From assembly GCA_951406725.2 (NCBI GenBank), contig OX597814.1, forward strand, positions 134,602,001 to 134,666,000: a stretch of 64,000 nucleotides of DNA, given 5' to 3'. The DNA comes from Octopus vulgaris. Its lineage: Eukaryota. Made by a program: the position numbers and the translations under genes. Shown piece after piece: positions 8,001-33,557 of this stretch. Under the pieces are notes generated by a model, which was not told where the DNA came from, did not search any database, and saw only the letters and a list, made by a program, of their open reading frames with translations. Position 1 is the stretch's first letter, and every line of letters begins with the position of its first letter.

Positions 8001-11000
8001 GTCAAAGAAACAGATAGTTGGACTTGAAAAGACAGAAGGAATGAATTTCTGGCTGGTACAACAGCATTTTTGCCTATTTATTATTGAGTTGTTTGTTGGT
8101 TATTTATTGAGCACAGTTTTGCCTGTGTCTTTTTGTTGTTTTTCTGTTTGCTTTCCTTGCAGTGAAAAAAGCTTAAGCTAGCAACGTACAGTAAGTAAGC
8201 AGTTTAGTTCTTTGATATAAAATGACCTGTATTGTTGTTTGCAACATGCTTTCTATATTTGAAACACCATCTGTAGGTAAAAGAAACAGACAGTTGGACT
8301 TGAAAGGACAGAAGCAACAAAATTCTGGCTTGTACAACTGCATTTTTGCGTATTCATTTGCTATATACATAGTAAGAATGTTCGTCTTTATTTTCTTAAA
8401 ACCTTTTGCTTTATTTTCTTAACACATATATTTTAGTATCAATTTATGATCGTAAAATGTATTGTAAATGACTGTTGCGTGCTAGTGTTTATTCATCTCT
8501 TTACTATTTGATTGCTACTTAACTATATTATTACTTTATAAAATTGTGTTCCCTTTCAGCATTGTGAAATTATTACTAAGTTGTTTGTTGGTTATTTGTT
8601 GAGCACAGTTTTGTATGTATGTTTCTCTTGTTGTTTTTTTTATTTGGTTTCCTTGCAGTGCAAAAAGCTTAAGCTAGCAAAGTACAGTAAGTAAGCAGTT
8701 TAGTTATTTGATATAAAATGTCCTGTACTGTTTGCAACATGCTTTCTATATTTGACACAGAATCTGTAGGTCAAAGAAACAGATAGTTGGACTTGAAAAG
8801 ACAGAAGGAATGAATTTCTGGCTGGTACAACAGCATTTTTGCCTATTTATTATTGAGTTGTTTGTTGGTTATTTATTGAGCACAGTTTTGCCTGTGTCTT
8901 TTTGTTGTTTTTCTGTTTGCTTTACTTGCAGTGAAAAAAAGCTTAAGCTAGCAACGTACAGTAAGTAAGCAGTTTAGTTCTTTGATATAAAATGACCTGT
9001 ATTGTTGTTTGCAACATGCTTTCGATATTTGACACACAATCTGTAGGTAAAAGAAACAGAACGTTGAACTTGAAGAGACAGATGAAATGAAATTCTTGTT
9101 GGTACGACCGCATTTTTGCCTATTCATTTGTTATATACATAGGAAGAATGTTCGTCTTTGTTTTCTTAACACCTTTTGCTTTATTTTCTTAACACATATA
9201 TTTTAGTATCAATTTATGATTGTAAAGATATTGTACTTTACTGTTGTGTACTAGTGTTTACTAATCTCATTACTATTTGATTGCTATTTAACTATATTAT
9301 TACTTTATAAAATTGTGTTCCCTTTCAGCATTGTGAAATTATTATTGAGTTGTTTGTTGGTAATATGTTGAGCACAGTTTTGCTTCTGTGTTTCTGTTGT
9401 TGTTTTTCTGTTTGCTTTCCTTGCAGTGAAAAAAAGCTTTAAGCTAGCAAAGTACAGTAAGTAAGCAGTTTAGTTCTTTGATATGAAATGACCTGTATTG
9501 TTGTTTGCAACATGCTTTCGATATTTGACACAATCTGTAGGTAAAAGAAACAGAAAGTTGGACTTGAAGAGACAGAAGAAATGAAATTCTTGTTGGTACG
9601 ACCGCATTTTTGCCTATTCATTTGTTATATACATAGGAAGAATGTTCGTCTTTGTTTTCTTAACACCTTTTGCTTTATTTTCTTAATACATATATTTTAG
9701 TATCAATTTATGATTGTAAAGATATTGTACTTTACTGTTGCGTACTAGTGTTTACTAATCTCATTACTATTTGATTGCTATTTAACTATAGTATTACTTT
9801 ATAAAATTGTGTTCCCTTTCAGCATTGTGAAATTATTATTGAGTTGTTTGTTGGTAATATGTTGAGCACAGTTTTGCTTCTGTGTTTCTGTTGTTGTTTT
9901 TCTGTTTGCTTTCCTTGCAGTGAAAAAAGCTTAAGCTAGCAAAGTAAAGTAAGTAAGCAGTTTAGTTCTTTGATATAAAATGACCTGTATTGTTGTTTGC
10001 AACATGCTTTCTATATTTGACACACCATCTGAAGGTAATAGAAACAGATAGTTGGAATTGAAAGGACAGAAGCAACAAAATTCTGGCTTGTACAACTGCA
10101 TTTTTGCGTATTCATTTGCTATATACATAGTAAGAATGTTCGTCTTTATTTTCTTAAAACCTTTTGCTTTATTTTCTTAACACATATATTTTAGTATCAA
10201 TTTATGATCGTAAAATGTATGGTAAATGACTGTTGCGAGCTAGTCTTTATTCATCTCTTTACTATATTATTGCTAGTTAGCTATATTATTACTTTATAAA
10301 ATTGTGTTCCCTTTCAGCATTGTGAAATTATTACTGAGTTGTTTGTTGGTTATTTGTTGAGCACAGTTTTGTATGTATGTTTCTCTTGTTTTTTTTATTT
10401 GGTTTCCTTGCAGTGCAAAAAGCTTAAGCTAGCAATGTACAGTAAGTAAGCAGTTTAGTTATTTGATATAAAATGTCCTGTATTGTTTGCAACATGCTTT
10501 CTACATTTGACACAGAATCTGTAGGTCAAAGAAACAGATAGTTGGACTTGAAAAGACAGAAGGAATGAATTTCTGGCTGGTACAACAGCATTTTTGCCTA
10601 TTTATTATTGAGTTGTTTGTTGGTTATTTATTGAGCACAGTTTTGCCTGTGTCTTTTTGTTGTTTTTCTGTTTGCTTTCCTTGCAGTGAAAAAAAGCTTA
10701 AGCTAGCAACGTACAGTAAGTAAGCAGTTTAGTTCTTTGATATAAAATGACCTGTATTGTTGTTTGCAACATGCTTTCTATATTTGAAACACCATCTGTA
10801 GGTAAAAGAAACAGACAGTTGGACTTGAAAGGACAGAAGCAACAAAATTCTGGCTTGTACAACTGCATTTTTGCGTATTCATTTGCTATATACATAGTAA
10901 GAATGTTCGTCTTTATTTTCTTAAAACCTTTTGCTTTATTTTCTTAACACATATATTTTAGTATCAATTTATGATCGTAAAATGTATTGTAAATGACTGT

Positions 11001-14000
11001 TGCGTGCTAGTGTTTATTCATCTCTTTACTATTTGATTGCTACTTAACTATATTATTACTTTATAAAATTGTGTTCCCTTTCAGCATTGTGAAATTATTA
11101 CTAAGTTGTTTGTTGGTTATTTGTTGAGCACAGTTTTGTATGTATGTTTCTCTTGTTGTTTTTTTTATTTGGTTTCCTTGCAGTGCAAAAAGCTTAAGCT
11201 AGCAAAGTACAGTAAGTAAGCAGTTTAGTTATTTGATATAAAATGTCCTGTACTGTTTGCAACATGCTTTCTATATTTGACACAGAATCTGTAGGTCAAA
11301 GAAACAGATAGTTGGACTTGAAAAGACAGAAGGAATGAATTTCTGGCTGGTACAACAGCATTTTTGCCTATTTATTATTGAGTTGTTTGTTGGTTATTTA
11401 TTGAGCACAGTTTTGCCTGTGTCTTTTTGTTGTTTTTCTGTTTGCTTTACTTGCAGTGAAAAAAAGCTTAAGCTAGCAACGTACAGTAAGTAAGCAGTTT
11501 AGTTCTTTGATATAAAATGACCTGTATTGTTGTTTGCAACATGCTTTCGATATTTGACACACAATCTGTAGGTAAAAGAAACAGAACGTTGAACTTGAAG
11601 AGACAGATGAAATGAAATTCTTGTTGGTACGACCGCATTTTTGCCTATTCATTTGTTATATACATAGGAAGAATGTTCGTCTTTGTTTTCTTAACACCTT
11701 TTGCTTTATTTTCTTAACACATATATTTTAGTATCAATTTATGATTGTAAAGATATTGTACTTTACTGTTGTGTACTAGTGTTTACTAATCTCATTACTA
11801 TTTGATTGCTATTTAACTATATTATTACTTTATAAAATTGTGTTCCCTTTCAGCATTGTGAAATTATTATTGAGTTGTTTGTTGGTAATATGTTGAGCAC
11901 AGTTTTGCTTCTGTGTTTCTGTTGTTGTTTTTCTGTTTGCTTTCCTTGCAGTGAAAAAAAGCTTAAGCTAGCAAAGTACAGTAAGTAAGCAGTTTAGTTC
12001 TTTGATATGAAATGACCTGTATTGTTGTTTGCAACATGCTTTCGATATTTGACACAATCTGTAGGTAAAAGAAACAGAAAGTTGGACTTGAAGAGACAGA
12101 AGAAATGAAATTCTTGTTGGTACGACCGCATTTTTGCCTATTCATTTGTTATATACATAGGAAGAATGTTCGTCTTTGTTTTCTTAACACCTTTTGCTTT
12201 ATTTTCTTAATACATATATTTTAGTATCAATTTATGATTGTAAAGATATTGTACTTTACTGTTGCGTACTAGTGTTTACTAATCTCATTACTATTTGATT
12301 GCTATTTAACTATAGTATTACTTTATAAAATTGTGTTCCCTTTCAGCATTGTGAAATTATTATTGAGTTGTTTGTTGGTAATATGTTGAGCACAGTTTTG
12401 CTTCTGTGTTTCTGTTGTTGTTTTTCTGTTTGCTTTCCTTGCAGTGAAAAAAAGCTTAAGCTAGCAAAGTACAGTAAGTAAGCAGTTTAGTTCTTTGATA
12501 TAAAATGACCTGTATTGTTGTTTGCAACATGCTTTCGATATTTGACACACCATCTGTAGGTAAAAGTATCAGAAAGTCGGACTTGAAGACACAGCAGAAA
12601 TGAAATTCTGGTTGGTACGACCGCATTTTTGCCTATTCATTTGTTATATGCATAGGAAGAATGTTTGTCTTTGTTTTCTTAACACCTTTCGCTTTATTTT
12701 CTTTACATATATTTTAGTATAAATATATGATTGTAAAATATTGTACTTTACTGTTGTGTACTAGTGTTTACTAATCTCATTACTATTTGATTGCTATTTA
12801 ACTATATTATTACTTTATATAACTCTGTTCCCTTTCAGCATTGTGAAATTATTATTGAGTTGTTTGTTCCTTATTTGTTGAGCATAGTTTTGTTTGTGTG
12901 TTTCTGTTGTTGTTTTTCAATTTGGTTTCCTTGCAGTGAAAAAAAGCTTAAGCTAGCAAAGTACTGTAACTAAACAGTTTAGTTCTTTGATATAAAATGA
13001 CCTGTATTGTTGTTTGCAACATGCTTTCTATATTTGACACACCATCTATAGGTAAAAGAAACAGATAGTTGGACTTGAAAGGACAGAACCAATAAAATTC
13101 TGGCTTGTACAACCGCATTTTTGCCTTTTCATTTGCTATATACATGGCAAGAATGTTCGTCTTAATTTTCTTATAACCTTTGGCTTTATTTTCTTAACAC
13201 ATATATTTTAGTATCAATTTATGATCGTAAAATTTATTCTAAATGACTGTTGCGTGCTAGTGTTTACTCATCTCATTATTATTTGATTGGTAGTTAACTA
13301 TGTTATTACCTTAAAAATTTGTGTTCCCTTTCACCATTGTGAAATTATTATTGAGTTGTTTGTTGGTTATTTATTCAGCACAGTTTTACCTGTGTCTTTT
13401 TGTTGTTGTTTTTCTGTTTGCTTTCCTTGCAGTGAAAAAAAGCTGAAGCTAGCAAATTACAGTAAGTAAGCAGTTTAGTTCCTTGATATAAAATGACCTG
13501 TATTGTTGTTTGGAACATGCTTTCGATATTTGACACACAATCTGTAAGTAAATGAAACAGAAAGTTGGACTTGAAGAGACAGAAGAAATGAAATTTTGGT
13601 ATGACCCCATTTTTGCCTATTCATTTGTTATATACATAGTAAGAATGTTCGTTTTTATTTTCTTAACACATATATTTTAGTATAAATTTGTGATTGTAAA
13701 TATATTGTACTTTACTGTTGCGTGCTAGTGTTTACTCATCTCTTTACTATTTCATTGCTAGTTGACTATATTATTACTTTATATAACTCTGTTCCTTTTC
13801 AGCATTGTGAAATTATTATTGAGTTGTTTGTTGGTAATATGTTGAGCACAGTTTTGCTTCTGTGTTTCTGTTGTTGTTTTTCTGTTTGCCTTCCTTGCAG
13901 TGAAAAAACGCGTAAGCTAGCAAAGTATAGTAAGTAAGCAGTTTACTTCTTTGATATTAAATGACCTGAATTGTTGTTTGCAACATGTTTTCGATATTTG

Positions 14001-17000
14001 ACACCCAATCTGTAGGTAAATAAAACAGAAAGTTGGACTTGAAGAGACAGAAGTGAAATTCTGGTTGGTACGACCGCATTTTTGCCTATTCATTTGTTAT
14101 ATACATAGTAAGAATGTTTGTCTTTATTTTCTTAACACCTTTTGCTTTATTTTCTTAACACATATATTTCAGTATCAATTTATGATTGTAAAAATTATTG
14201 TACTTTACTGTTGCGAACTAGTGTTTACTCATATCATTACTATTTGATTGCTAGTTGACTATATTATTACTTTATAAAATTGTGTTCCCTTTCAGCATTG
14301 TGAAATTATTATTGAGTTGTTTGTTGGTAATATGTTGAGCACAGTTTTGCTTCTGTGTTTCTGTTGTTGTTTTTCTGTTTGCTTTCCTTGCAGTGAAAAA
14401 AAGCTTAAGCTAGCAAAGTACAGTAAGTAAGCAGTTTAGTTCTTTGATATAAAATGACCTGTATTGTTGTTTGCAACATGCTTTCGATATTTGACACACA
14501 ATCTGTAGGTAAAAGAAACTGAAAGTTGGACTTGAAGAGACAGAAGAATTGAAATTCTTGTTGGTACGACCGCATTTTTGGCTATTCATTTGTTATATAC
14601 ATAGGAAGAACATTCGTCTTTGTTTTCTTAACACCTTTCGCTTTATTTTCTTAACACATATATTTTAGTATCAATTTATGATTGTAAAGATATTGTACTT
14701 TACTGTTGTGTACTAGTGTTTACTAATCTCATTACTATTTGATTGCTATTTAACTATATTATTACTTTATATAACTCTGTTCCTTTTCAGCATTGTGAAA
14801 TTATTATTGAGTTCTCTGTTGGTTACTTATTGAGCACAGTTTTGCCTGTGTCTTTTTGTTGTTGTTTTTTCTGTTTCCTTTCCTTGCAGTCGAAAAAAGC
14901 TTAAGCTAGCAACGTACAGTAAGTAAGCAGTTTAGTTCTTTGATATAAAATGACCTGTATTGTTGTTTGCAACATGCTTTCTATATTTGAAACACCATCT
15001 GTAGGTAAAAGAAACAGATAGTTGGACTTGAAAGGACAGAAGCAACAAAATTCTGGCTTGTACAACCGCATTTTTACCTATTCATTTGCTATATACATCT
15101 TAAGAATGTTCGTTTTTATTTTCTTAAAACCTTTTGCTTTATTTTCTTAACACAGATATTTTAGTATCAATTTATGATCGTAAAATGTATTGTAAATGAC
15201 TGTTGCGTGCTAGTGTTTATTCATCTCTTTACTATTTGATTGCTAGTTAACTATATTATTTCTTTATAAAATTGTGTTCCCTTTCAGCATTGTGAAATTA
15301 TTACTGAGTTGTTTGTTGGTTATTTGTTGAGCACAGTTTTGTATGTATGTTTCTCTTGTTTTTTTTTATTTGGTTTCCTTGCAGTGCAAAAAGCTTAAGC
15401 TAGCAAAGTACAGTAAGTAAGCAGTTTATTATTTGATATAAAATGTCCTCTATTGTTTGCATCATGCTTTCTATATTTGACACAGAATCTGTAGGTCAAA
15501 GAAACAGATAGTTGGACTTGAAAAGACAGAAGGAATGAAATTCTGGCTGGTACAACAGCATTTTTGCCTATTTATTATTGAGTTGTTTGTTGGTTATTTA
15601 TTGAGCACTGTTTTGCCTGTGTCTTTTTGTTGTTTTTCTGTTTGCTTTCCTTGCAGTGAAAAAAAGCTTAAGCTAGCAACGTACAGTAAGTAAGCAGTTT
15701 AGTTCTTTGATATAAAATGACCTGTATTGTTGTTTGCAACATGCTTTCGATATTTGACACACAATCTGTAGGTAAAAGAAACAGAAAGTTGGACTTGAAG
15801 AGACAGAAGAAATGAAATTCTTCTTGGTACGACCGCATTTTTGCCTATTCATTTGTTATATACATAGGAAGAATGTTCGTCTTTGTTTTCCTAACACCTT
15901 TTGCTTTATTTTCTTAACACATATATTTTAGTATCAATTTATGATTGTAAAGATATTGTACTTTACTAATCTCATTACTATTTGATTGCTATTTAACTAT
16001 ATTATTACTTTATATAACTCTGTTCCTTTTCAGCATTGTGAAATTATTATTGAGTTGTTTGTTGGTTATTTATTGAGCACAGTTTTGCCTGTGTCTTTTT
16101 GTTGTTGTTTTTTCTGTTTCCTTTCCTTGCAGTCAAAAAAAGCTTAAGCTAGCAAAGTACAGTAAGTAAGCAGTTTAGTTCTTTGATATAAAATGACCTG
16201 TATTGTTGTTTGCAACATGCTTTCGATATTTGACACACCATCTGTAGGTAAAAGAAACAGATAGTTGGACTTGAAAGGACAGAAGCAACAAAATTCTGGC
16301 TTGTACAACCGCATTTTTGCCTATTCATTTGCTATATATATAGTAAGAATGTTCGTCTTTATTTTCTTAAAACCTTTTGCTTTATTTTCTTAACACATAT
16401 ATTTTAGTATCAATTTATGATCGTAAAATGTATGGTAAATGACTGTTGCGTGCTAGTGTTTATTCATCTCTTTACTATTTGATTGCTAGTTAACTTTATT
16501 ATTACTTTATAAAATTGTGTTCCCTTTCAGCATTGTGAAATTATTACTGAGTTGTTTGTTGGTTATTTGTTGAGCACAGTTTTGTATGTATGTTTCTCTT
16601 GTTGTTTTTTTTATTTGGTTTCCTTGCAGTGAAAAAAGCTTAAGCTAGCAAAGTACAGTAAGTAAGCAGTTTAGTTATTTGATATAAAATATCCTGTATT
16701 GTTTGCAACATGCTTTCTATATTTGACACAGAATCTGTAGGTCAAAGAAACAGATAGTTGGACTTGAAAAGACAGAAGGAATGAATTTCTGGCTAGTACA
16801 ACAGCATTTTTGCCTATTTATTATTGAGTTGTTTGTTGGTTATTTATTGAGCACAGTTTTGCCTGTGTCTTTTTGTTGTTTTTCTGTTTGCTTTCCTTGC
16901 AGTGAAAAAAAGCTTAAGCTAGCAACGTACAGTAAGTAAGCAGTTTAGTTCTTTGATATAAAATGACCTGTATTGTCGTTTGCAACATGCTTTCGATATT

Positions 17001-20000
17001 TGACACACAATCTGTAGGTAAAAGAAACAGAAAGTTGGACTTGAAGAGACAGAAGAAATGAAATTCTTGTTGGTACGACCGCATTTTTGCCTATTCATTT
17101 GTTATATACATAGGAAGAATGTTCGTCTTTGTTTTCTTAACACCTTTTGCTTTATTTTCTTAACACATATATTTTAGTATCAACTTATGATTGTAAAGAT
17201 ATTGTACTTTACTGTTGCGTACTAGTGTTTACTAATCTCATTACTATTTGATTGCTATTTAACTATATTATTACTTTATAAAATTGTGTTCCCTTTCAGC
17301 ATTGTGAAATTATTATTGAGTTGTTTGTTGGTAATATGTTGAGCACAGTTTTGCTTCTGTGTTTCTGTTGTTGTTTTTCTGTTTGCTTTCCTTGCAGTGA
17401 AAAAAAGCTTAAGCTAGCAAAGTACAGTAAGTAAGCAGTTTAGTTCTTTGATATAAAATGACCTGTATTGTTGTTTGCAACATGCTTTCGATATTTGACA
17501 CACCATCTGTAGGTAAAAGAAACAGAAAGTCGGACTTGAAGACACAGCAGAAATGAAATTCTGGTTGGTACGGCCGCATTTTTGCCTATTCATTTGTTAT
17601 ATGCATAGGAAGAATGTTTGTCTTTGTTTTCTTAACACCTTTCGCTTTATTTTCTTTACATATATTTTAGTATAAATTTATGATTGTAAAATATTGTACT
17701 TTACTGTTGTGTACTAGTGTTTACTAATCTCATTACTATTTGATTGCTATTTAACTATATTATTACTTTATATAACTCTGTTCCCTTTCAGCATTGTGAA
17801 ATTATTATTGAGTTGTTTGTTCCTTATTTGTTGAGCACAGTTTTGTTTGTGTGTTTCTGTTGTTGTTTTTCAATTTGGTTTCCTTGCAGTGAAAAAAAGC
17901 TTACGCTAGCAAAGTACTGTAAGTAAACACTTTAGTTCTTTGATATAAAATGACCTGTATTGTTGTTTGCAACATGCTTTCTATATTTAACACACCATCT
18001 GTAGGTAAAAGAAACAGATAGTTGGACTTGAAAGGACAGAAGCAATAAAATTCTGGCTTGTACAACCGCATTTTTGCCTATTCATTTGCTATATACATAG
18101 CAAGAATGTTCGTCTTAATTTTCTTAAAACCTTTGGCTTTATTTTCTTAACTCATATATTTTAGTATCAATTTATGATCGTAAAATTTATTCTAAATGAC
18201 TGTTGCGTGCTAGTGTTTACACATCTCATTATTATTTGATTGGTAGTTAACTATGTTATTACCTTATAAACTTGTGTTCCCTTTCACCATTGTGAAATTA
18301 TTATTGAGTTGTTTGTTGGTTATTTATTCAGCACAGTTTTACCTGTGTCTTTTTGTTGTTGTTTTTCTGTTTGCTCTCCTTGCAGTGAAAAAAAGCTGAA
18401 GCTAGCAAATTACAGTAAGTAAGCAGTTTAGTTCCTTGATATAAAATGACCTGTATTGTTGTTTGCAACATGCTTTCGATATTTGACACACAATCTGTAG
18501 GTAAAAGAAACAGAAAGTTGGACTTGAAGAGACAGAAGAATTGAAATTCTTGTTGGTACGACCGCATTTTTGGCTATTCATTTGTTATATACATAGGAAG
18601 AACATTCGTCTTTGTTTTCTTAACACCTTTCGCTTTATTTTCTTAACTCATATATTTTAGTATCAATTTATGATAGTAAAGATATCATACTTTACTGTTG
18701 TGTACTAGTGTTTACTAATCTCATTACTATTTGATTGCTATTTAACTATATTATTACTTTATATAACTCTGTTCCCTTTCAGCATTGTGAAATTATTATT
18801 GAGTTGTTTGTTCCTTATTTGTTGAGCACAGTTTTGTTTGTGTGTTTCTGTTGTTGTTTTTCAATTTGGTTTCCTTGCAGTGAAAAAAAGCTTAAGCTAG
18901 CAAAGTACTGTAAGTAAACAGTTTAGTTCTTTGACATAAAATGACCTGTATTGTTGTTTGCAACATGCTTTCTATATTTGACACACCATCTGTAGGTAAA
19001 AGAAACAGATAGTTTGACTTGAAAGGACAGAAGCAATAAAATTCTGGCTTGTACAACCGCATTTTTGCCTATTCATTTGCTATATACATAGTAAGAATGT
19101 TTGTCTTTATTTTCTTAACACATATATTTTAGTATCAATTTGTGATTGTAAAGATATTGTACTTTACTGTTGCGTGCTTGTGTTTACTCATCTCTTTACT
19201 ATTTCATTGCTAGTTGACTGTATTATTACTTTATAAAATTGTGTTCCCTTTCAGCATTGTGGAATTATTATTGAGTTGTTTGTTGGTAATATGTTGAGCA
19301 CAGTTTTGCTTCTGTGTTTCTGTTGTTGTTTTTCTGTTTGCATTCCTTGCAGTGAAAAAAAGCGTAGGCTAGCAAAGTACAGTAAGTAAGCAGTTTACTT
19401 CTTTGATATTAAATGACCTGAATTGTTGTTTGCAACATGTTTTCGATATTTGACACCCAATCTGTAGGTAAAAAAAACAGAAAGTTGGACTTGAAGAGAC
19501 AGAAGTGAAATTCTGGTTGGTACGACCGCATTTTTGCCTATTCATTTGTTATATACATAGTAAGAATGTTCGTCTTTATTTTCTTAACACCTTTTGCTTT
19601 ATTTTCTTAACACATATATTTCAGTATCAATTTATGATTGTAAAAATAATTGTACTTTACTGTTGTGTACTAGTGTTTACTCATATCATTACTAGTTGGA
19701 CTTGAAAAGACAGAAGGAATGAATTTCTGGCTGGTACAACAGCATTTTTGCCTATTTATTATTGAGTTGTTTGTTGGTTATTTATTGAGCACAGTTTTGC
19801 CTGTGTCTTTTTGTTGTTTTTTCTGTTTCCTTTCCTTGCAGTCAAAAAAAGCTTAAGCTAGCAAAGTACAGTAAGTAAGCAGTTTAGTTCTTTGATATAA
19901 AATGACCTGTATTGTTGTTTGCAACATGCTTTCAATATTTGACACAGAATCTGTAGGTAAAAGAAACAGAAAGTTGGACTTGAAGAGACAGAAGAAATGA

Positions 20001-23000
20001 AATTCTTGTTGGTACGACCGCATTTTTGGCTATTCATTTGTTATATACATAGGAAGAACATTCGTCTTTGTTTTCTTAACACCTTTCGCTTTATTTTTTA
20101 ACTCATATATTTTAGTATCAATTTATGATAGTAAAGATATCGTACTTTACTGTTGTGTACTAGTGTTTACTAATCTCATTACTATTTGATTGCTATTTAA
20201 CTATATTATTACTTTATATAACTCTGTTCCTTTTCAGCATTGTGAAATTATTATTGAGTTGTTTGTTGGTTATTTATTGAGCACAGTTTTGCCTGTGTCT
20301 TTTTGTTTTTGTTTTTTCTGTTTCCTTTCCTTGCAGTCAAAAAAAGCTTAAGCTAGCAAAGTACAGTAAGTAAGCAGTTTAGTTCTTTGATATAAAATGA
20401 CCTGTATTGTTGTTTGGAACATGCTTTCGATATTTGACACACAATCTGTAGGTAAATGAAACAGGATGTTGGACTTGAAGAGACAGAAGAAATGAAATTT
20501 TGGTTGGTACGACCCCATTTTTGCCTATTCATTTGTTATATACATAGTAAGAATGTTCGTTTTTATTTTCTTAACACATATATTTTAGTATCAATTTGTG
20601 ATTGTAAAGATATTGTACTTTACTGTTGCGTGCTAGTGTTTACTCATCTCTTTACTATTTCATTGCTAGTTGACTATATTATTACTTTATAAAATTGTGT
20701 TCCCTTTCAGCATTGTGGAATTATTATTGAGTTGTTTGTTGGTAATATGTTGAGCACAGTTTTGCTTCTGTGTTTCTGTTGTTGATTTTCTGTTTGCTTT
20801 CCTTGCAGTGAAAAAAAGCTTAAGCTAGCAAAGTACAGTAAGTAAGCAGTTTAGTTCTTTGATATAAAATGACCTGTATTGTTGTTTGCAACATGCTTTC
20901 TATATTTGACACACAATCTGTAGGTTAAAGAAACAGAGAGTTGGACTTGAAGAGACAGAAGAAATGAAATTCTTGTTGGTACGACCGCATTTTTGGCTAT
21001 TCATTTGTTATATACATAGGAAGAACATTCGTCTTTGTTTTCTTAACACCTTTCGCTTTATTTTCTTAACACATATATTTTAGTATCAATTTATGATTGT
21101 AAAGATATTGTACTTTACTATTGTGTACTAGTGTTTACTAATCTCATTGCTATTTAACTATATTATTACTTTATATAACTCTGTTCCTTTTCAGCATTGT
21201 GAAATTATTATTGAGTTGTTTGTTGGTTATTTATTGAGCACAGTTTTGCCTGTGTCTTTTTGTTGTTGTTTTTTCTGTTTCCTTTCCTTGCAGTCAAAAA
21301 AAAGCTTAAGCTAGCAAACTACAGTAAGTAAGCAGTTTAGTTCTTTGATATAAAATGACCTGTATTGTTGTGTGCAACATGCTTTCTATATTTGAAACAC
21401 CATCTGTAGGTAAAAGAAACAGATAGTTGGACTTGAAAGGACAGAAGCAACAAAATTCTGGCTTGTACAACCGCATTTTTACCTATTCATTTGCTATATA
21501 CATAGTAAGAATGTTCGTCTTTATTTTCTTAAAACCTTTTGCTTTATTTTCTTAACACATATATTTTAGTATCAATTTATGATCGTAAAATGTATTGTAA
21601 ATGACTGTTGCGTGCTAGTGTTTATTCATCTCTTTACTATTTGATTGCTAGTTAACTATATTATTACTTTATAAAATTGCATTCCCTTTCAGCATAGTGA
21701 AATTATTATTGAGTTGTTTGTTGGTTATTTGTTGAGCACAGTTTTGTAAGTATGTTTCTGTTGTTGTTTTTTTTATTTGGTTTCCTTGCAGTGCAAAAAG
21801 CTTAAGCTAGCAAAGTACAGTAAGTAAGCAGTTTATTATTTGATATAAAATGTCCTCTATTGTTTGCAACATGCTTTTTATATTTGACACAGAATCTGTA
21901 GGTCAAAGAAACAGATAGTTGGACTTGAAAAGACAGAAGGAATGAAATTCTGGCTGGTACAACAGCATTTTTGCCTATTTATTATTGAGTTGTTTGTTGG
22001 TTATTTATTGAGCACTGTTTTGCCTGTGTCTTTTTGTTGTTTTTCTGTTTGCTTTCCTTGCAGTGAAAAAAAGCTTAAGCTAGCAACGTACAGTAAGTAA
22101 GCAGTTTAGTTCTTTGATATAAAATGACCTGCATTGTTTTTTGCAACATGCTTTCGATATTTGACACACAATCTGTGAAAGTTGGACTTGAAGAGACAGA
22201 AGAAATGAAATTCTTCTTGGTACGACCGCATTTTTGCCTATTCATTTGTTATATACATAGGAAGAATGTTCGTCTTTGTTTTCTTAACACCTTTTGCTTT
22301 ATTTTCTTAGCACATATATTTTAGTATCAATTTATGATTGTAAAGATATTGTACTTTACTGTTGTGTACTAGTGTTTACTAATCTCATTACTATTTGATT
22401 GCTATTTAACTATATTATTACTTTATATAACTCTGTTCCCTTTCAGCATTGTGAAATTATTATTGAGTTGTTTGTTCCTTATTTGTTGAGCACAGTTTTG
22501 TTTGTGTGTTTCTGTTGTTGTTTTTCAATTTGGTTTCCTTGCAGTGAAAAAAGCTTAAGCTAGCAAAGTACTGTAAGTAAGCAGTTTAGTTCTTTGATAT
22601 AAAATGACCTGTATTGTTGTTTGCAACATGCTTTCTATATTTGACACACCATCTGTAGGTAAAAGAAACAGATAGTTTGACTTGAAAGGTCAGAAGCAAT
22701 AAAATTCTGGCTTGTACAACTGCATTTTTGCCTATTCATTTGCTATATACATAGCAAGAATGTTCGTCTTAATTTTCTTAAAACCTTTGGCTCTATTTTC
22801 TTAACTCATATATTTTAGTATCAATTTATGATCGTAAAATTTATTCTAAATGACTGTTGCGTGCTAGTGTTTACTCATCTCATTATTATTTGATTGGTAG
22901 TTAACTATGTTATTACCTTATAAAATTGGGTTCCCTTTCACCATTGTGAAATTATTATTGAGTTGTTTGTTGGTTATTTATTCAGCACAGTTTTACCTGT

Positions 23001-26000
23001 GTCTTTTTGTTGTTGTTTTTCTGTTTGCTTTCCTTGCAGTGAAAAAAAGCTGAAGCTAGCAAAGTACAGTAAGTAAGCAGTTTAGTTCCTTGATATAAAA
23101 TGACCTGTATTGTTGTTTGCAACATGTTTTCGATATTTGACACCCAATCTGTAGGTAAAAAAAATAGAAAGTTGGACTTGAAGAGACAGAAGTGAAATTC
23201 TGGTTGGTACGACCGCATTTTTGCCTATTCATTTGTTATATACATAGTAAGAATGTTCGTCTTTATTTTCTTAACACCTTTTGCTTTATTTTCTTAACAC
23301 ATATATTTCAGTATCAACTTATGATTGTAAAAATAATTGTACTTTACTGTTGTGTACTAGTGTTTACTCATATCATTACTATTTGATTGCTAGGTGACTA
23401 TATTATTACTTTATAAAATTGTGTTCTCTTTCAGCATTGTGAAATTATTATTGGGTTGTTTGTTGGTAATATGTTGAGCACAGTTTTGCTTCTGTGTTTC
23501 TGTTGTTGTTTTTCTGTTTGCTTTCCTTGCAGTGAAAAAAAGCTTAAGCTAGCAAAGTACAGTAAGTAAGCAGTTTAGTTCTTTGATATAAAATGACCTG
23601 TATTGTTGTTTGCAACATGCTTTCGATATTTGACACACAATCTGTAGGTAAATGAAACAGAAAGTTGGACTTGAAGAGACAGAAGAAATGAAATTCTTGT
23701 TGGTACGACCGCATTTTTGGCTATCCATTTGTTATATACATAGGAAGAACGTTCGTCTTTGTTTTCTTAACACCTTTCGCTTTATTTTCTTAACACATAT
23801 ATTTTAGTATCAATTTATGATTGTAAAGATATTGTACTTTACTGTTGTGTACTAGTGTTTACTAATCTCAATACTATTTGATTGCTATTTAACTATATTA
23901 TTACTTTATATAACTCTGTTCCTTTTCAGCATTGTGAAATTATTATTGAGTTGTTTGTTGGTTATTTATTGAGCACAGTTTTGCCTGTGTCTTTTTGTTG
24001 TTTTTTCTGTTTCCTTTCCTTGCAGTCAAAAAAAGCTTAAGCTAGCAAAGTACAGTAAGTAAGCAGTTTAGTTCTTTGATATAAAATGACCTGTATTGTT
24101 GTTTGCAACATGCTTTCTATATTTGACACACCATCTGTAGGTAAAAGAAACAGATAGTTGGAATTGAAAGGACAGAAGCAACAAAATTCTGGCTTGTACA
24201 ACCGCATTTTTGCCTATTCATTTGCTATATACATAGTAAGAATGTTTGTCTTTATTTTCTTAACACCTTTTGCTTTATTTTCTTAACACATATATTTTAG
24301 TATCAATTTATGATCGTAAAATGTATTGTGAATGACTGTTGCGTGCTAGTGTTTATTCATCTCTTTACTATTTGATTGCTAGTTAACTTTATTATTACTT
24401 TATAAAATTGTGTTCCCTTTCAGCATTGTGAAATTATTATTGTGTTGTTTGTTGGTTATTTGTTGAGCACAGTTTTGTATGTATGTTTCTCTTGTTGTTT
24501 TTTTTATTTGGTTTCCTTGCAGTGCCAAAAGCTTAAGCTAGCAAGGTACAGTAAGTAAGCAGTTTAGTTATTTGATATAAAATGTCCTGTATTGTTTGCA
24601 ACATGCTTTCTATATTTGACACAGAATCTGTAGGTCAAAGAAACAGATAGTTGGACTTGAAAAGACAGAAGGAATGAAATTCTGGCTGGTACAACAGCAT
24701 TTTTGCCTATTTTTAATTGAGTTGTTTGTTGGTTATTTATTGAGCACAGTTTTGCCTGTGTCTTTTTGTTGTTTTTCTGTTTGCTTTCCTTGCAGTGAAA
24801 AAAAGCTTAAGCTAGCAAAGTACAGTAAGTAAGCAGTTTAGTTCTTTGATATAAAATGACCTGTATTGTTGTTTGCAACATGCTTTCGATATTTGACACA
24901 CAATCTGTAGGTAAAAGAAACAGAAAGTTGGACTTGAAGAGACAGAAGAAATGAAATTCTTGTTGGTACGACCGCATTTTTGGCTATTCATTTGTTATAT
25001 ACATATGAAGAACGTTCGTCTTTGTTTTCTTAACACCTTTCGCTTTATTTTCTTAACACATATATTTTAGTATCAATTTATGATTGTAAAGATATTGTAC
25101 TTTACTGTTGTGTACTAGTGTTTACTAATCTCATTACTATTTGATTGCTATTTAACTATATTATTACTTTATATAACTCTGTTCCCTTTCAGCATTGTGA
25201 AATTATTATTGAGTTGTTTGTTCCTTATTTGTTGAGCACAGTTTTGTTTGTGTGTTTCTGTTGTTGTTTTTCAATTTGGTTTCCTTGCAGTGAAAAAAAG
25301 CTTAAGCTAGCAAAGTACTGTAAGTAAACAGTTTAGTTCTTTGATATAAAATGACCTGTATTGTTGTTTGCAACATGCTTTCTATATTTGACACACCATC
25401 TGTAGGTAAAAGAAACAGATAGTTGGACTTGAAAGGACAGAAGCAACAAAATTCTGGCTTGTACAACCGCATTTTTACCTATTCATTTGCTATATACATA
25501 GTAAGAATGTTCGTCTTTATTTTCTTAAAACCTTTTGCTTTATTTTCTTAACACATATATTTTAGTATCAATTTATGATCGTAAAAAGTATTGTAATTTA
25601 CTGTTGCGTACTAGTGTTTACTCATCTCATTACTATTTGATTGCTAGTTAACTATATTGTTACTTTATAAAATTGTGTTCCCTTTCAGCATTGTGAAATT
25701 ATTATTGAGTTGTTTGTTGGTTATTTGTTGAGCACAGTTTTGTTTGTGTGTTTATGTAGTTGTTTTTCTGTGTGCTTTCCTTGCAGTGAAAAAAGCTTAA
25801 GCTAGCAAAGTACAGTAAGTCTGCAGTTTAGTTCTTTGATGTAAGATGACCTGCATTGTTGTTTGGAACATGCTTTCTATATTTGACACACAATCTGTAG
25901 GTTAAAGAAACAGAGAGTTGGACTTGAAGAGACAGAAGCTGGTAGGACCGCATTTTTGCATATTCACTAATGTTCAAAGCCACTTTAATATATAGTGATA

Positions 26001-27351
26001 GAAGCAAGTTTTACATGAAAGCAAAAGAGAATTTTTTTTTAAACACAAGTGGGTTTTTTTAACAGTTTTCGCATTAGTGTTTCTCTTTTTCCATCTTCAC
26101 CAGATACAAAATGATGACATGAAGAATCCTAGATAGTGTCATTCAGATAAGAGAACTTTTATTGTATTTAGCTGAAAGTAATAGCCTGTGTATGTTTCTG
26201 AGTATTTTATTCATTGACAGACGTGCTGAATGTTGGAAGAAAATTGAGTATGTAAGGAATCAACTCTTTTTGTCTTTGCCCCAATTCCTGTCTCTGGCTA
26301 AGATCTCAAGACTTTTCTTGTGTTTAATTTCCCTGTGCAACTGATTTTATGTAGATTGTTGTTTTTCTTCTTTCACTGTGGCATTTTTGAATCTTGATAT
26401 GAACATAGTAAGAATTTTCCCCTATCGTAACTATTGAAATTAATAATTGCAGTTGTGTTTGGCTACTTTAAAAAATGTTTACTTGCAATGTAGGGAAACT
26501 AAATCGGAAATAGTATAGTTGCTTTTTGAGTAATGTTATGGGCAGTGTTTTGGAAAATGTGCTTTGTTCGTTTCTCACCAGATATTCAGATAATGAAATT
26601 GGAAAGCGTCTCGATACGTGTGTAAAATTGAAGATAGCAGCTATGCGATTTACGAGGTAGGTCATTGTTTCCGCATATGATGGTAAAGAGAATAACATTT
26701 TAACATGTATGTGTAGAGGTCAACTGTGAATGTAAGAATTGTTTCTTGTGTGTAGAAACTACGTACTTTTACTGTGCGTGCATATGTTTGTATGTTTCTG
26801 TCATTGGCAGATGTGATGACATGAAGAGGACTGGATAAGACAACAGCACTAAGATAAGCCTTATTACTTCAATTCTGTTTAGTGGTTTTTCTGTAGATAT
26901 TTGGATGAAGATTATGCTAAATGTAATGTTTAAATTTGATTATTTGGTAAGTATGGAAAATGCTGGAGATAAGTAATTGCATAGAGAGTTGATGATATTT
27001 TGTGTTGGTTGCAAACATTTCTCTTCGTAGGTTTTGGAATTATTGAAAAATGCTCTGTAAGTGCTTACAGTTACCTACCGTATTACTGTAATGTTAAATT
27101 TTAAAAGATTGATTGGATAAATTTAAGGCCGAACTGTTTGTTTTTTTATGCATGTCATTCTTTGACAGATGCAAAAGCTCTACAGGAAAAGTAGGACTTC
27201 CAATAAGATAAGAGAAAAGTTTGTTTGTAGTTATATAACTTTGTTTCATCTGTGTGTTGTATGTATGAAAAACGCTGCACGTTGTAAGAGGGTCAAGAGT
27301 TTGAGTGATCTCTGAATAAGTGGTACGTTTTGTTTTCTTTTTATGATGCTT

Positions 27352-27830
27352 CATTTTCTTAACACATATTTTAGTATCAATTTATGATCGAAAAAAGTAT
27401 TGTAATTTTCTGTTGTGTACTAAGGTTTACTTATCTCATTACTATTTGATTTCTTGTTAGCTATGTTATTACTTTATAAAATTGTGTTCCCTTTCAGCAT
27501 TGTGAAATTATTATTGAGTTGTTTGTTGGTAATTTGTTGAGCACAGTTTTGTTTGTGTGTTTCTGTTGTTGTTCTTCTGTTCGCTTTCCTTGCAGTGAAA
27601 AAAGCTAAAGCTAGTAAAGTACAGTAAGTAAGCAGTTTAGTTTTTTGATGGAAGATGACCTGTATTTTTGTTTGCAACATGCTTTCTATATTTGACACAC
27701 AATCTGTAGGTAAAAGAAATTGATTGTTGAACTTGAAGAGACAGAAGCAATAAAATTCTGGCTTGTACGACTGCATTTTTGCCTATTCATTTGATATGAA
27801 CATAGAAAGAATGTTCCCCTTTATTTTCTT
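27352..27830. repeat. Orphan diverged satellite monomer
   Basis: Same sequence as the array monomer (ccctttcagcattgtgaaatt..., ttccttgcagtgaaaaaagct...gtacagtaagt, aatctgtaggtaaaag) embedded between unique modules. Confidence 0.93.
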
Positions 27831-28290
27831 TGGCAGATGTGATGACATGAAGAGGACTGGATAAGACAACAGCACTAAGATAAGCCTTATTACTTCAATT
27901 CTGTTTAGTGGTTTTTCTGTAGATATTTGGAGGAAGATTATGCTAAATGTAATGTTTAAATTTGATTATTTGGTAAGCATGGAAAATGCTGGAGATAAGT
28001 AATTGCATAGAGAGTTGATGATATTTTGTGTTGGTTGCAAACTTATCTCTTCGTAGGTTTTGGAATTATTGAAAAATGCTCTGTAAGTGCTTACAGTTAC
28101 CTACCGTATTACTGTAATATTAAATTTTAAAAGATTGATTGGATAAATTTAGTGCCGAACCGTTTGTTTTTTTATGCATGTTATCTTTGACAGATGCAAA
28201 AGCCCTTCAGGAAAAGTAGGACTTCAAATAAGATAAGAGAAAGGTTTGTTTGTAGTTTATATCACTTTGTGTTTCATCTGTGTGTTTTAA

Positions 28291-29373
28291 CCTTTTCGTT
28301 ACTATATTTCTGACCAAAATACACCCCTTATGTGTTTCAATTAATTTCTAACATAATCATAAATTTAGTCTGGTTTCATTAAACAACTATAACTTTTTTA
28401 TTTATCAGTATATTAACGTGAATTTTGGAAGATAATTTAATGAAATGTTCTCAACCAATTCTATACTATAATTTTTGTCACAAAGTAACTCTAATTGCAG
28501 GTAGATACAGGTAAATTCAACAAAATATAAAATTATTAAAATTTTGTTCAAACATCGCTATAGAAAATGGGTTATTAGCTAATATTCAATTGGGTATACA
28601 ACAAAATTTTACGATAGAATTTGTTATTCTGGGTAACTTTCTGATACCCATAATAATATTTATGGCAAAATAGTCTTAATTTCATTTAAAGTTATGGGAA
28701 ACCACTAACTATCCTTTCTTTCGCTTTGTTTACATTTAGCATAGCGGTTCGTTTCCACCGTAATGATTTCAAATAGGCTCATTCGAAAAAGTAAAAAGAA
28801 ATAGTCTAAGGCTTTACTCTTCTGGGAAAGTCTGTGGCTTGGTCCAGTTTCTTCAGAAAAATCACCGAAAGAAACGGTTTTTAAATTTTTACTCCATTCA
28901 GGTGCCAATTCATTTTCTTTATCGCTGTCGGAGCTCTCGGATTCACTGTTTTCACTTTCGGAAAATGAAACAGATTCATTATCAAATACCACGTGTTTTT
29001 TTTTTTCAGTCATAGAGTTAGATTTATGAAGGTCTTCAGTAGAAAATCCTTCGAATTCTGACTCGCTGCTTGAGATAATGAAATTCGTATCCATCTTTTG
29101 TCAGAATTACAAATTTTGAAAACACAATAGGAACATATTTCGGAAAAAAATCTCCCAAAATTCACGGAATTAAAATTACACTTCGATTGTTGTACAAAAC
29201 TGTATTTGAACTGTTTACGAAGTATAATACGTGTTTTCATGAATGTACTAAAGAGATTTGCTCTGATATTCTCATTTAAATATGAATAGGTAAATACGGG
29301 CGGGTTTGGGCGGTTTGGTCACATTAACCAAAATTTTTTTTGGGCAGCTTTGGGCGGTTTGGTAACGAAAGGG
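28291..29373 (-). mobile_element. Internally deleted piggyBac transposon
   Basis: TTAA on both sides (28287-90, 29374-77); TIRs CCTTTTCGTTAC / GTAACGAAAGGG (1 mismatch); subterminal GGGCGGTTTGG repeats at ~29298-29362. Confidence 0.9.
28705..29094 (-). pseudogene. Truncated piggyBac transposase N-terminus (129 aa)
   Basis: Acidic Ser/Glu-rich N-terminus followed by F..ETGP...LDYFFLLF...LFEIITVETNRYA, typical of PGBD-type transposases; the DDD domain is absent. Confidence 0.85.
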
Positions 29374-31325
29374 TTAAGAGGGTCAAGAATTTGGAAAATG
29401 TGCTTTGTTCGTTTCTCACCAGATACTCAAATGATGAAATTGGAAAGCTTCTCGATTTGTTTGTGAGATTAAAGATAGCAGCTATGCAGTTTACACGGTA
29501 GGTCATTGTTTCAGCACATGAAGTTTAAGAAAATATGATTTGAACTTGTGTTTGTAGAGCGAAACTGTGAACATAAGTGCTAAATTGTTTCTCGTTTGTA
29601 AAATCAACTTACTATAACTGTGTGTGCACATGCTTACCTACCTTATTACTTTAATGTTAGGTTTTAAAAGATTGATTGGATAAATTTAGGGCCGAACCAT
29701 TTGTTTTTTGTTCATTATTGTTTGACAGATGCAAAAGCTGTCCAGGAAAGTAGGACTTCCAATAAGATAAGAGAAAAGTTTGTTTGTCATTAATATCCAT
29801 TTTTGTTTCATCTGTGTATGGTATGTATGAAAAATGCTGCGAGTTGTAATTTGGACACTAATTTGAGTGATCTCTGAATTAGTGGTACGTTCCGTTTGCT
29901 TTTATGATGCAATATTTTCTTAACCCATATATTTTCATATTACAATTTATGTATGAAAAAAATATTGCAATTTGTTGTGGCTTCCTAGTATTTACTCATC
30001 TCATTACCATGTGATTGCTAGTTCACTATATTATTACTTTTGTATTAAAACAATTAGAAATTAAAACAAATAGTAATTATTAATTAAAACAAATAGTAAT
30101 TGAATGCAAAAGGCTCTTTTCTTCAGGAAAAAAGTATTGTTTAGCAATAAATCCTAGAATGTTCTATTGAGACATGAGAACTTCATGGCATTTAGCTGAA
30201 AGTAATAACTCTTATATGTGTGTCTATGCCTTTGTATTTTATTCATTGGCAAATGTGTTGGATAACAGATGAAAATTCAATGGATTAGCTATCAGCTCTT
30301 TTTGTTTTCCCTGTTTGTCTTTCCTCAACATCCAAAGACTTGTATTTACCTACACAACTGATTTAACAGTGACTGTTTTACCCCTTCAGCTGTGTCATTT
30401 TGCAGTTTGGATATGAACAGAGTAAGCATGTTTCATTGTTATAACTATTGAAATTAGTAATGTTTACTTGCAATGTAGGATAGTAAAAGGAAAATGGTAT
30501 AGTGGCTTTTTGTGTAAACGTTGTTGTCAGTATTCTGGAAAATGTGCTTTATTTGTTTCTCACCAGATATTTAGATGATGAAATTGGAAAGTGTCTTGGT
30601 ACATGTCGCAGATTGAAGATAGGTAGGTTATTGCTTTCGCATATTAAGGTAAAGAAAATATCAGTTGATAGATGCAAAAGCCCTCCAGGAAAAGTACGAC
30701 CGCCAGTAAAATTAAAGAAAAACTTTGTTTACAGTTAATGTCCATTTCTTTTTCACCTGTGTATTGTATGCTTGGAAATATAACTATTATAAAGATAACT
30801 TTAAATTTCACATGTACAGATTTTGTATGTTCTAATTTGCCTGTGTGAAGGTTTCATCTCCTTTTTTTTTTTTTGTCCCTTGTAGTATTTATTTTTGCTT
30901 TGAGATGAAGATAGATTTTGTTATGAAATTTTACTGTTCGGTTCATACCTGTTATTGGTAATATTTTACATTGCCTATTCTGCCTTGGTTGCGTAAATAC
31001 TCTGTTCACAGAAAAAAACCTGACGGAAATGTATGAAGATGTTGAAGACTGTTAATATTGTCATGGAGTTACATTCAGTGAATTAGTGATTGGAGACTAA
31101 TTCTGTTGGTAAGTCTGGATTTTATGTATTCAGTGTATGTGAATTTCTCTACCCTTGAAGCACTTTTTCCTTTCTCCCTTTTTAGTGTTAAATATTTTGA
31201 GCAAAATTTAGCTTCATGCTGTGGAATATCAAATGTTTGATCTCATTAGAAAAAAATCCCAAAGAAAATGCTGTTGTGGATACATAAGCTTTGAAAATTA
31301 GGGCTTTTGGTTTCATTAACAAAGT

Positions 31326-31528
31326 ATTTAGAAATGATTTTCTTATGAGGCTTCCTCATTAAATAAAGTTGCAAGAGGTTTGAGTTTTGCATTATCTTGT
31401 CTAGGATGAATATAACAAATATGTACATTTAGAAATGATTTTCTTATGAGGCTTCCTCATTAAATAAAGTTGCAAGAGGTTTGAGTTTTGCATTATCTTG
31501 TCTAGGATGAATATAACAAATATGTACA
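31326..31528. repeat. Direct tandem duplication, 2 x 101 bp
   Basis: ATTTAGAAATGATTTTCTTATGAGG...ATATGTAC starts at 31326 and again at 31427. Confidence 0.95.
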
Positions 31529-33520
31529 GCAATACAAATAACCAAAGAAATCAAGCTTTGAAAAGAGCCCTCCATAAATTATGTCTCTGAAAGAATAAAG
31601 AAATCTTTACAAGAAAGGAAAGGTGTTTTGAGAGTAAGAGTTACTTTGTTGTTAATCAAACTGTTTAAATATTTTTTAGGTGTATTAAATATTTTGTACT
31701 CATTTTCTCTCTTCTGATGAATTTTTTATAAGATTTTATATACTTTTAATAATGTATGTGTGAAAACACCACCATGTGTGTATAAATTTTGTGCTGGTGT
31801 GTGACATGATTTGGGTGTTGCTTTGTGTGTTCAATTCTTTTATTATGTGGTGTGTTGTCTGTAAGCAACACTTCAAGGATTGACACATTTCATGCTACCT
31901 TAGTCCACTCAGCAGAACATGAGGACCAGCAAATAGCAGATATGCCTCTGTTTAGTGGGTATAGTTTGTTACTCATCTGCAGATTAATTTTTTGTATTAA
32001 AAATTATATTTACTACTTAATGTCAACTTTAGAATACTGAAGATTAGCAAGAAATACATATTTCCTGTTTGATTTTACTAATATTTTTGAAAGTATTTAA
32101 AAAAAAATTTATTTTCTATTTGTAACAACTCCTTTTTCTAGGTAGGTTGAACAATTGTTTAAAAGTTGCCCTGTACTGATGTGATCAATCACTTGAAGTT
32201 AATTATAATTTTGCAGCAATAGATTGGCAGTTATGGCCTCCAGTGTCTTCTGGTAAACTTTCACTTACTGTATTTTATAAATGCTAATTAAAATTTGCAT
32301 TTTTTTTTAATTAGCTGCTTTTTTTTCACTTCTGTTAAGTAGCTTATTTCAAATGATGTTTCTATATAAAATTTCCTTCTCTAACTATACAGTAGACTTT
32401 GACTTGCACAAATTTTCTTTTATTTGTCTAGGATGAATTTAATAATCGCACATAATGATGGAATGGCAAAAGAACTTGAGCTCAAAAAGAATTCTCATCA
32501 AAATTGAAGTTTCCAAATGAAATATTATTCCAAAGGAAAAACAGTCAGAAATTGATAAAATTATCTGTTGAAATTAAGAAGTTTTTCTTGTGATCACAAG
32601 AAGCTCATTATCATTAAAATGTCAGTTATTTCACTTGCTAATTAAATTGTACTACTGAAACAAAATTTATGAAATACATTGTGGATATATACAAACAAAA
32701 TAATTGAGTGGTCTGGAAATGATAATAACTCACAAACGTAAAAGAGAAACATCAAAAAGTGCCAAACAAATATTTTAATTTTATTTTATTTATTGAAATT
32801 GTACAAGTGATGAAACTATATGAAAACTGAAAAAATTGCATTGGCATATTTACTTATCAAATCTTCTGTAGGCATCTGGATAGTGGTAATATACTCCATA
32901 TTTGACAAAACACTCATACTATTATGAATATAATTGTCTGTGTTTTAAATGGCTATCATGCATCTATAAAAAAAAAGATTCAGATGTAATTATTTATCAA
33001 ATCTTATGAAAAGCTTAATATGGCAATGTCTACTGAAAACCACCCTTACAGAGATTACTCTGCAGAGAGTAATCTCCCCTATCTTGTATCAGTAAAAATG
33101 TTTGTTTTAAGACATTTACTAATTAACATCCAAAATAAATAGTGCTGTTTATGATGTAAAGATAATTTTTTATGCTTAAAAATACAATTCTTGTATTCTT
33201 TTGGTGGTTTTAGTCTTTGGTATGTTTATTTTTATTGATCTCTCCCAAGATAACCAGGTGTAAGATGTGACAATCAATGTGGGATAAACGATATTTTTGT
33301 CCAATGCACTGACCCTATCATCCAATGTCAGTATACATGCACATATATAATTTTGTTCATGTTCTGTGGTGATGTGGATTAGACGGTTCAACAGTATCTG
33401 AGGGGCCTGAGATTCTCAGCTTAAGCGTGGTGTGTGTGTGTGTATATATATGTTACCATGTGTGTATCGTTGGCAATTTTTTTCCCTCCGTCTTCCCTTC
33501 CTTGGATCTTTGCTTTTTCT

Positions 33521-33557
33521 ATGTTTCTGACGAAGAGCTCTGCTCGAAACATTAAAT
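33521..33557 (+). ncRNA. Minimal hammerhead ribozyme-like motif (Penelope type), probably decayed
   Basis: CTGACGA-A-GAGC(TCT)GCTC-GAAA-CATTA: core boxes and stem II are present; stem III would be the palindrome AACGTT after one CpG-type reversion. Confidence 0.55.

Follow-up and report, generated by a model that had tools for sequence, protein, structure and literature searches.

Introduction

Among long non-coding RNAs (lncRNAs), Drosophila hsr-omega is a nuclear RNA with a ~280-bp tandem array at its 3' end and is thought to bind heterogeneous nuclear ribonucleoproteins (hnRNPs), while Xist, Rsx and roX are repeat-built RNAs; to our knowledge, the hsr-omega array is not known as an exon-intron module. 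FIRRE holds the local repeats RRD and R0-R11, 67-804 bp long and overlapping exons and introns, with an exonic repeat that is spliced in 7-11 times and has been shown to retain the RNA in the nucleus (PMC4820808). In coding genes of amphioxus (Adh3, BflGb6 and BflGb9), mirages are tandem exon-intron boundaries that keep their AG/GT and are seemingly unused, with units of 10-160 bp, few copies and concerted evolution in the cluster (PMC3087553), and on avian dot chromosomes exon stuttering has expanded unique exon-adjacent sequence locally, as partial exon copies in introns of GC-rich coding genes that are polymorphic between individuals (PMC12954441). In Octopus, Zmast is a male-specific, Z-linked lncRNA reaching ~990 transcripts per million (TPM) in males and is described as a continuous block of ~7 kb with splice junctions (10.1101/2024.12.09.627507). 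Here we analyse a locus of Octopus vulgaris lying in a stretch of 64,000 nucleotides, hereafter the window (assembly GCA_951406725.2, contig OX597814.1, positions 134,602,001 to 134,666,000, forward strand), in which a 493-bp satellite array adjoins a series of exon-like modules.

We favour, with a probability of roughly 0.55, the reading that this locus is the 3' part of an intron-retaining lncRNA, whose satellite grew from its own module and which, by analogy, would serve as a nuclear repeat scaffold. The absence of any ATG frame longer than 58 codons, the nested module duplicates and the restriction of GT-AG joints to the last three introns together make the 3' part of a lncRNA likely. The locus compares with the systems above as follows. 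It resembles FIRRE as a non-coding locus of local repeats, with no coding frame. It differs in showing no splicing of repeat exons, in having its repeats arranged head to tail as a satellite that carries a higher-order repeat, and in being unrelated to FIRRE by sequence; no look-alike of the repeats was found among the other sequence windows compared. As in mirages and exon stuttering, the tandem unit is copied from adjoining exon-intron sequence (the exon status of B and C being predicted). With mirages it shares AG/GT signals that are kept and apparently unused, as well as concerted evolution, and with exon stuttering polymorphism between individuals. The unit has 493 bp and several boundaries, in ~60 copies over at least 26 kb of non-coding sequence, whereas the mirages described have short units with one boundary; the avian case concerns GC-rich coding genes, while here multi-exon modules of an AT-rich non-coding locus are involved. 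Like hsr-omega, it would be a long non-coding RNA with a tandem array. The origin is thus like that of mirages and exon stuttering and the build like that of FIRRE, but the locus is assigned to neither, given the size of its unit and the lack of visible repeat-exon splicing. We found no published description of it in the literature searched, although supplementary files to the Zmast preprint might contain relevant material.

Evidence for Transcription and Splicing

The transcript evidence consists of assembled contigs from public sequencing runs (coded X1, X5, X7, X9, X10, X14, X17 and X24), the stretch being present in 20 of the 24 listed public runs. Run types are inferred: the RNA-like runs are presumed to be RNA, none being recorded as such, and X17 is DNA-like. 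Contigs lose rare forms, so that minor splicing may go undetected, and their depth is a poor measure. When the contigs of X1, X5 and X10, which represent three studies, were aligned over positions 21000-36000, 25 joints were obtained; among the 15 listed, three are GT..AG, namely 31108>31506 (X5), 31633>32432 (X1, X5) and 32252>32432 (X1, X5, X10). Contigs that are unspliced over the same three introns also occur. The two alternative joints into the acceptor at 32432 are the pattern expected of alternative splicing, and they fix the plus strand. A preliminary description of the window had predicted an exon at 31505-31632 and an acceptor at 32431; both sites exist, each one base further on (31506-31633 and 32432). 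The same description had overlooked the used donors 31108 and 32252, as well as a piggyBac-type element and a four-fold regional duplication, and it had placed the transcript 3' end at 32.4-32.8 kb, which is too early, as unbroken contigs reach from 32432 to 33542 (X5) and 33596 (X1).

Upstream of these introns, the five short units D, F, H, I and J lie exactly where they had been predicted, with AG and GT ends intact, but the idea that they are working exons is not supported: four of the five are bridged unspliced. Contigs run through this region without splicing at 26723-27125 and 29758-31109 (X5), 25969-26830 and 27858-28285 (X9) and 26555-27016 (X7), and a copy of J at 28194-28215 is crossed in the same way. 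On 24790-28285, array edge included, all 5 joints with the contigs of X9, X7, X14 and the DNA-like X17 were examined and none is GT..AG, minor splicing being possible. For splicing of repeat exons, the count is 0 of 5 joints in three runs, with the loss of rare forms from contigs to be kept in mind.

Splice-site scores were compared with those of 200 dinucleotide shuffles, using an approximate matrix. On the plus strand, acceptors (13 against 3.8; 0/200 shuffles) and acceptor-donor units (3 against 0.2; 1/200) are enriched, and strong donors are not (5 against 3.7; 64/200). The minus strand is enriched as well (acceptors 8 against 3.1, donors 8 against 2.4, units 4 against 0.1), because duplicated modules multiply chance sites; enrichment on both strands and the approximate matrix make this a weak test. 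The motif GTA[AG]G is strand-biased, with 26 plus against 9 minus occurrences, compared with 7.4 and 9.6 per equal length downstream. This enrichment led us to consider a minus-strand gene, which was rejected: most of its sites repeat a small set of motifs carried by the duplicated modules, and no CT..AC occurs among the listed joints. Two resemblances to array exons that had been proposed could not be upheld: TGCAAAAGC..AAAGTA in module J is no closer to exon B than chance allows (133/200 shuffles attain the score), and GTACGACCGC, likened to the exon C donor, is indeed the sole GC-rich 10-mer in common with the array, yet 9% of shuffles yield one.

Some further features of the presumably transcribed part were noted. 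In the last exon, a perfect 11-bp stem with a 4-nt loop (33026-33052; window z -6.7) lies ~80 bases before an AATAAA at 33134, and a long hairpin is predicted at 31266-31345 (z -5.6), in the intron between donor 31108 and exon K. The exact duplication around the exon K acceptor (Table 1) either arose very recently through the kind of duplication that built the region or reflects an error of the assembly. With regard to RNA editing, A>G showed no clear excess over T>C in the tallies of contig differences. The contrast between X14 and X24 (0.57 against 0.03 of words, within one study) was considered as a sex-like on/off signal and dropped, the depth of X14 itself being 2-5; X24 has no coverage over the unique part, and 34527-35027 is uncovered in three of four runs and covered at 0.03 in X5, neither observation being used as evidence.

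Duplicated Modules and the Satellite Array

A self-BLAST duplication map of 26-33 kb shows the segment at 26-31 kb to be a mosaic in which four diverged duplicates (67-96% alike) are combined with an orphan 493-bp monomer and a piggyBac insertion (Table 1). The sequences 26549-26789 and 27071-27475 are repeated at 29390-30040 (81-82%), and 26125-26700 is repeated at 30150-30666 (67%). Splice sites turn over among the duplicates, the D acceptor being lost in U4 and the E acceptor in U1. Relatedness was also tested on 300 module pairs against architecture-keeping shuffles, six modules being entered with slightly shifted ends: direct paralogues stood out (z 9-43), and weaker links appeared for 26105, F, G, H and D (z 4.5-7) and for K with L (z 5.6). 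These links and the duplication map indicate that the region was assembled by repeated internal duplication. The X9 contig over 25969-26830 carries 38 letter differences and 7 gap positions in 855 (~5%), against 13 in 659 for X17, and is either a very divergent allele or an unseen U1 paralogue located elsewhere. At 30148 the contigs of X1, X5 and X10 hold ~56 bases more than the window.

The window starts inside the array, whose 5' end lies outside it, as do the promoter and the transcript 5' end. Two predicted exon-like segments, B of 28-30 nt and C of 52-55 nt, occur in each monomer along with a weak A, and there are ~60 B-C modules, some of them in a 273-bp short form; matches to the higher-order repeat nearer the array 3' edge are 87-95% identical. 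The splice dinucleotides are intact in 60/60 B acceptors, 60/60 B donors, 58/60 C acceptors and 60/60 C donors. Stops interrupt B plus C in every frame in 47 of the 50 parsed modules, and the 28-30 nt of B shift the frame. A plus-strand skew of G over C and T over A extends across the array and the U units, but not across the piggyBac element or 34.5-64 kb.

At 25403-25411 and in its copies, the C acceptor reads TGTAG|GTAAAA, with a donor-like motif directly after the acceptor, and TCTAG|GTAGGT at 32141 is similar; judged from sequence, these acceptor-then-donor motifs are possible recursive-splicing points. Over 24790-25960, the long-intron part of the monomer is ~5- to 20-fold scarcer in X9 than the B-intron-C part, relative to the DNA-like run. 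A joint 25519>27585, which is not GT-AG, occurs in X1 and X9 and suggests a monomer variant devoid of the long-intron part.

Table 1. Coordinates of the features of the locus within the 64,000-nt window.
Feature	Position	Strand	Remarks
493-bp satellite array	1..25966	+	already running at window start; repeat analysis
Higher-order repeat, 2,524 bp	1357..11453	+	four copies, at least 99.8% identity to query copy
Unit U1	26100..27351	+	module series D-E-F-G-H-I-J
Exon-like D	26221..26251	+	crossed unspliced by X9 contig 25969-26830
Exon-like F, 75 nt	26582..26656	+	strong sites; paralogues at 29423 and 30567; crossed unspliced
Exon-like H	26897..26946	+	crossed unspliced by X7 26555-27016 and X5 26723-27125
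Exon-like I	27031..27056	+	crossed unspliced by X5 26723-27125
Exon-like J	27169..27190	+	four paralogues; no bridging contig among those listed
Orphan monomer	27352..27830	+	ATTTTCTT at either end; self-BLAST match 27329-27830, up to 88%
Unit U2	27827..28289	+	young 95.7% duplicate of 26801-27261 (G-H-I-J); self-BLAST
piggyBac-type transposon, internally deleted	28287..29377	-	16-nt inverted repeats ending in TTAA
Unit U3	29390..30040	+	F and J modules and long-intron relic 29913-30040 (84%); 81-84% to U1
Unit U4	30150..30778	+	older D-E-F-J duplicate (67-78%); splice-site turnover
Segment N	31012..31108	+	donor after 31108 joined to 31506 in X5; predicted acceptor 31012 bridged unspliced
101-bp tandem duplication, exact	31326..31528	+	includes exon K acceptor; absent from X1 and X10 contigs
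Exon K	31506..31633	+	linked upstream in X5, and to 32432 in X1 and X5; old duplicate of L start
Segment O	32142..32252	+	donor after 32252 joined to 32432 in X1, X5, X10
Last exon L, at least 1.1 kb	32432..33542	+	unbroken contigs; runs into multi-copy repeats near 33468

Origin of the Satellite

The proposal that the satellite was born from an exon-intron module was supported as regards its derivation from the local module series, but not as regards the orphan monomer being the literal ancestor. Both the orphan and the long-intron relic are real by self-BLAST. U1 and U3 share the boundary at which the J flank meets the long intron, at 84% over 405 bp, while array copies average 91%, which makes this linear context older than most of the array. 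The orphan shares GATATGAACA (three sites) with the outgroup modules E1 and E4, whereas none of 45 array copies has it, and it shares one base with the relic that none of 44 array copies has. From these sites, the orphan is best read as an unamplified sister lineage of all 45 array copies, which supports a local origin of the satellite. That it is the ancestor itself is not supported, given its 6 private changes in 128 bp and a right end cut by the young U2 duplication. The motif ATTTTCTT at the orphan ends also sits within the 23-bp junction duplication of the array, and in contigs of X1 and X5 an orphan-like end runs on into an array junction; given these contigs and the cut made by U2, the orphan may once have had neighbours. 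Because the array extends beyond the window on its 5' side, a further source copy may lie upstream.

We suggest the following course of events. An old multi-exon unit was duplicated internally several times, as seen in the copies of 67%, 82% and 96%. A segment of ~480 bp bounded by the microhomology ATTTTCTT would then have been duplicated head to tail, and unequal exchange would have expanded it to the observed ~60 modules and the 2.5-kb higher-order repeat. One sister copy stayed single downstream, as its outgroup sites show, where the piggyBac element presumably inserted later. Transcription would proceed on the plus strand, with 26-31 kb mostly kept unspliced and the last introns alternatively removed, as the presumed RNA contigs indicate. 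By analogy with FIRRE, the unused splice-like sites and U-rich tracts might keep the RNA nuclear and offer many binding points for splicing factors or hnRNPs.

Several observations weigh against this picture. In the relic segment, 10 sites group the relic with the array and 4 group it with the orphan. In an unrooted tree, computed on 425 nt, the orphan falls next to monomer 25541 and the long-plus-short clade (89/94), a placement that fits the sister reading only if the tree is rooted on the orphan; the relic-rooted tree does not settle its position. Conservation of the array splice sites is borderline, 3 of 4 being fully intact against 7 of 32 other AG/GT (21 non-redundant copies, p=0.057). 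The F paralogues F1, F3 and F4 are each open in one common frame, with pN/pS of 0.43-0.6. Moreover, the runs are presumed RNA, the 31-33 kb joints come from such runs alone and are drawn from 15 of 25, no splice joint was seen in the array, and a single transcript through the whole array is a presumption. Finally, the ratio of array to unique depth is 1.05 in X9 and 0.44 in X7 against 11.8 in X17, where organism labels differ and depth measures poorly; 3' bias, excision or a transcript start near the array end are all possible reasons for the low array depth in RNA-like runs.

Coding Potential and Alternative Explanations

The open frames of F1, F3 and F4 raise the question of a decaying micro-exon gene that once was coding, now a transcribed pseudogene with fossil splice sites, an RNA devoid of any role and an array expanded neutrally. 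The turnover of splice sites among the duplicates and the unspliced bridging of the mini-exons would suit such a history, and the best free exon path encodes 136 aa against 89+-20 in shuffles (1/60 attain it); however, shuffling breaks the relatedness of the paralogues and overstates this contrast, all 6 of the X9 differences within F alter an amino acid in that frame (read by hand), and the array splice dinucleotides are nearly invariant. No protein homologue was found either: none of 77 candidates had a match at E<=10, an Atlas search gave no usable match, and Pfam gave nothing for the region's four scanned non-transposon frames. A single profile match, P0003, was rejected as artefactual: it comes from eight 3.7-bit repeats, and tblastn found nothing matching it in the window. 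We regard a pseudogene as unlikely.

Rather improbable, in our view, is the identity of the locus with Zmast or a similar sex-specific RNA of Z-chromosome dosage compensation, which would be a special case of the favoured lncRNA and overlaps with it. Both would be octopus lncRNAs, and the available preprint text annotates one exon of 7,098 nt plus a distinct 2-kb part, all within 18 kb, to be compared with a unique part of 7.0-7.6 kb here, and names Xist, Rsx and roX as parallels; the same text mentions no repeat array, its locus spans 18 kb while ours exceeds 33 kb, and contig depths of 10-100 seem low for a transcript of ~990 TPM, depth being a poor measure (10.1101/2024.12.09.627507). More speculative still, the locus could encode a nuclear RNA, Zmast or a sibling of it, that regulates sex or chromosomes and has a repeat domain formed by a satellite of whole exon-intron modules with splice sites intact yet unused, a multivalent splicing-factor scaffold made of the amplified exons of a former gene, and an independent, ongoing route to an Xist- or Rsx-like RNA; this we consider a long shot.

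Also improbable is that the region represents the 3' untranslated region or the last introns of an upstream coding gene, with the array as a large mirage or exon-stutter expansion inside it. Such expansions are known in coding genes (PMC3087553, PMC12954441), the 5' end lies outside the window, and the under-representation of the array in RNA-like runs could be that of an excised intron. Against this, no coding exon was recognised among the open reading frames (ORFs) of 25.9-64 kb, where the family or homologue matches are transposon pieces. In addition, alternative introns far behind a stop codon would usually trigger decay.

Another improbable reading is a regulated micro-exon gene whose introns are retained in the tissues sampled and which is fully spliced only in some other tissue, sex or stage: AG/GT are intact at D, F, H, I and J and in nearly all array copies, and contigs cannot show absence, but among the joints listed none upstream of 31108 is a splice joint in seven RNA-like runs, and the chain of all 17 candidate exons yields an ATG frame of just 50 aa. 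Schistosome MEG genes are protein-coding, with frame-preserving micro-exons, whereas here exon lengths modulo 3 are mixed, the B lengths shift the frame and the chain gives those 50 aa. In the four isoforms modelled on the joints, the longest ATG frame was 58 aa in every case. A host of intronic miRNA or snoRNA clusters such as C19MC and SNORD116, which have a hairpin or box RNA in each repeated intron, was rejected: no conserved hairpin was found in the monomers at 24.8-26.0 kb (no window z below -2.5), the consensus folds at -5.4 kcal/mol, where just 1 of 20 pairs shows changes on both sides, and Rfam gave 0 hits.

Satellites usually lose their source sequence. Here older paralogues and a single sister monomer lie next to a heterogeneous array edge and a higher-order repeat of 99.8% identity, so that the path from duplicated exons to a satellite can be dated and rooted within a single locus. 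The locus likely offers an uncommon look at a satellite that grew out of parts of the gene itself. If the RNA proves nuclear and functional, it would show the assembly of a repeat scaffold RNA out of splice-site modules; were it Zmast, the array would add a repeat domain that the accessible preprint text does not describe for this candidate cephalopod dosage-compensation RNA. Otherwise, the locus illustrates a known process with unusual clarity.

The piggyBac Element and Downstream Repeats

The element that interrupts the module series has TTAA ends, terminal inverted repeats and a DDE transposase frame, as piggyBac transposons do; the frame 28708-29100 matches a PF13843 protein (37% identity, E 1e-8). 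Among 122 ORFs beyond 25.9 kb, read by eye with 12 of them Pfam-scanned, no Z-linked marker gene was recognised, and past 34 kb transposon fragments alone were. Multi-copy repeats at 33468-34250, tentatively SINE-like and then LTR-like, include an AATAAA at 33935 and three 45-bp repeats at 34003-34136, and they may supply the RNA 3' end. Further on, broken LINE fragments with endonuclease or reverse-transcriptase frames lie at 36142-39700, 40800-42400, 43055-46000 and 63137-64000; Pfam matches back the labels of 41647-42384 and 63137-64000, the other downstream labels being by eye. Mariner-like pieces occur near 48.0-48.7, 50.1 and 54.8-55.5 kb, and an integrase-like fragment is located at 57.3-58.0 kb.

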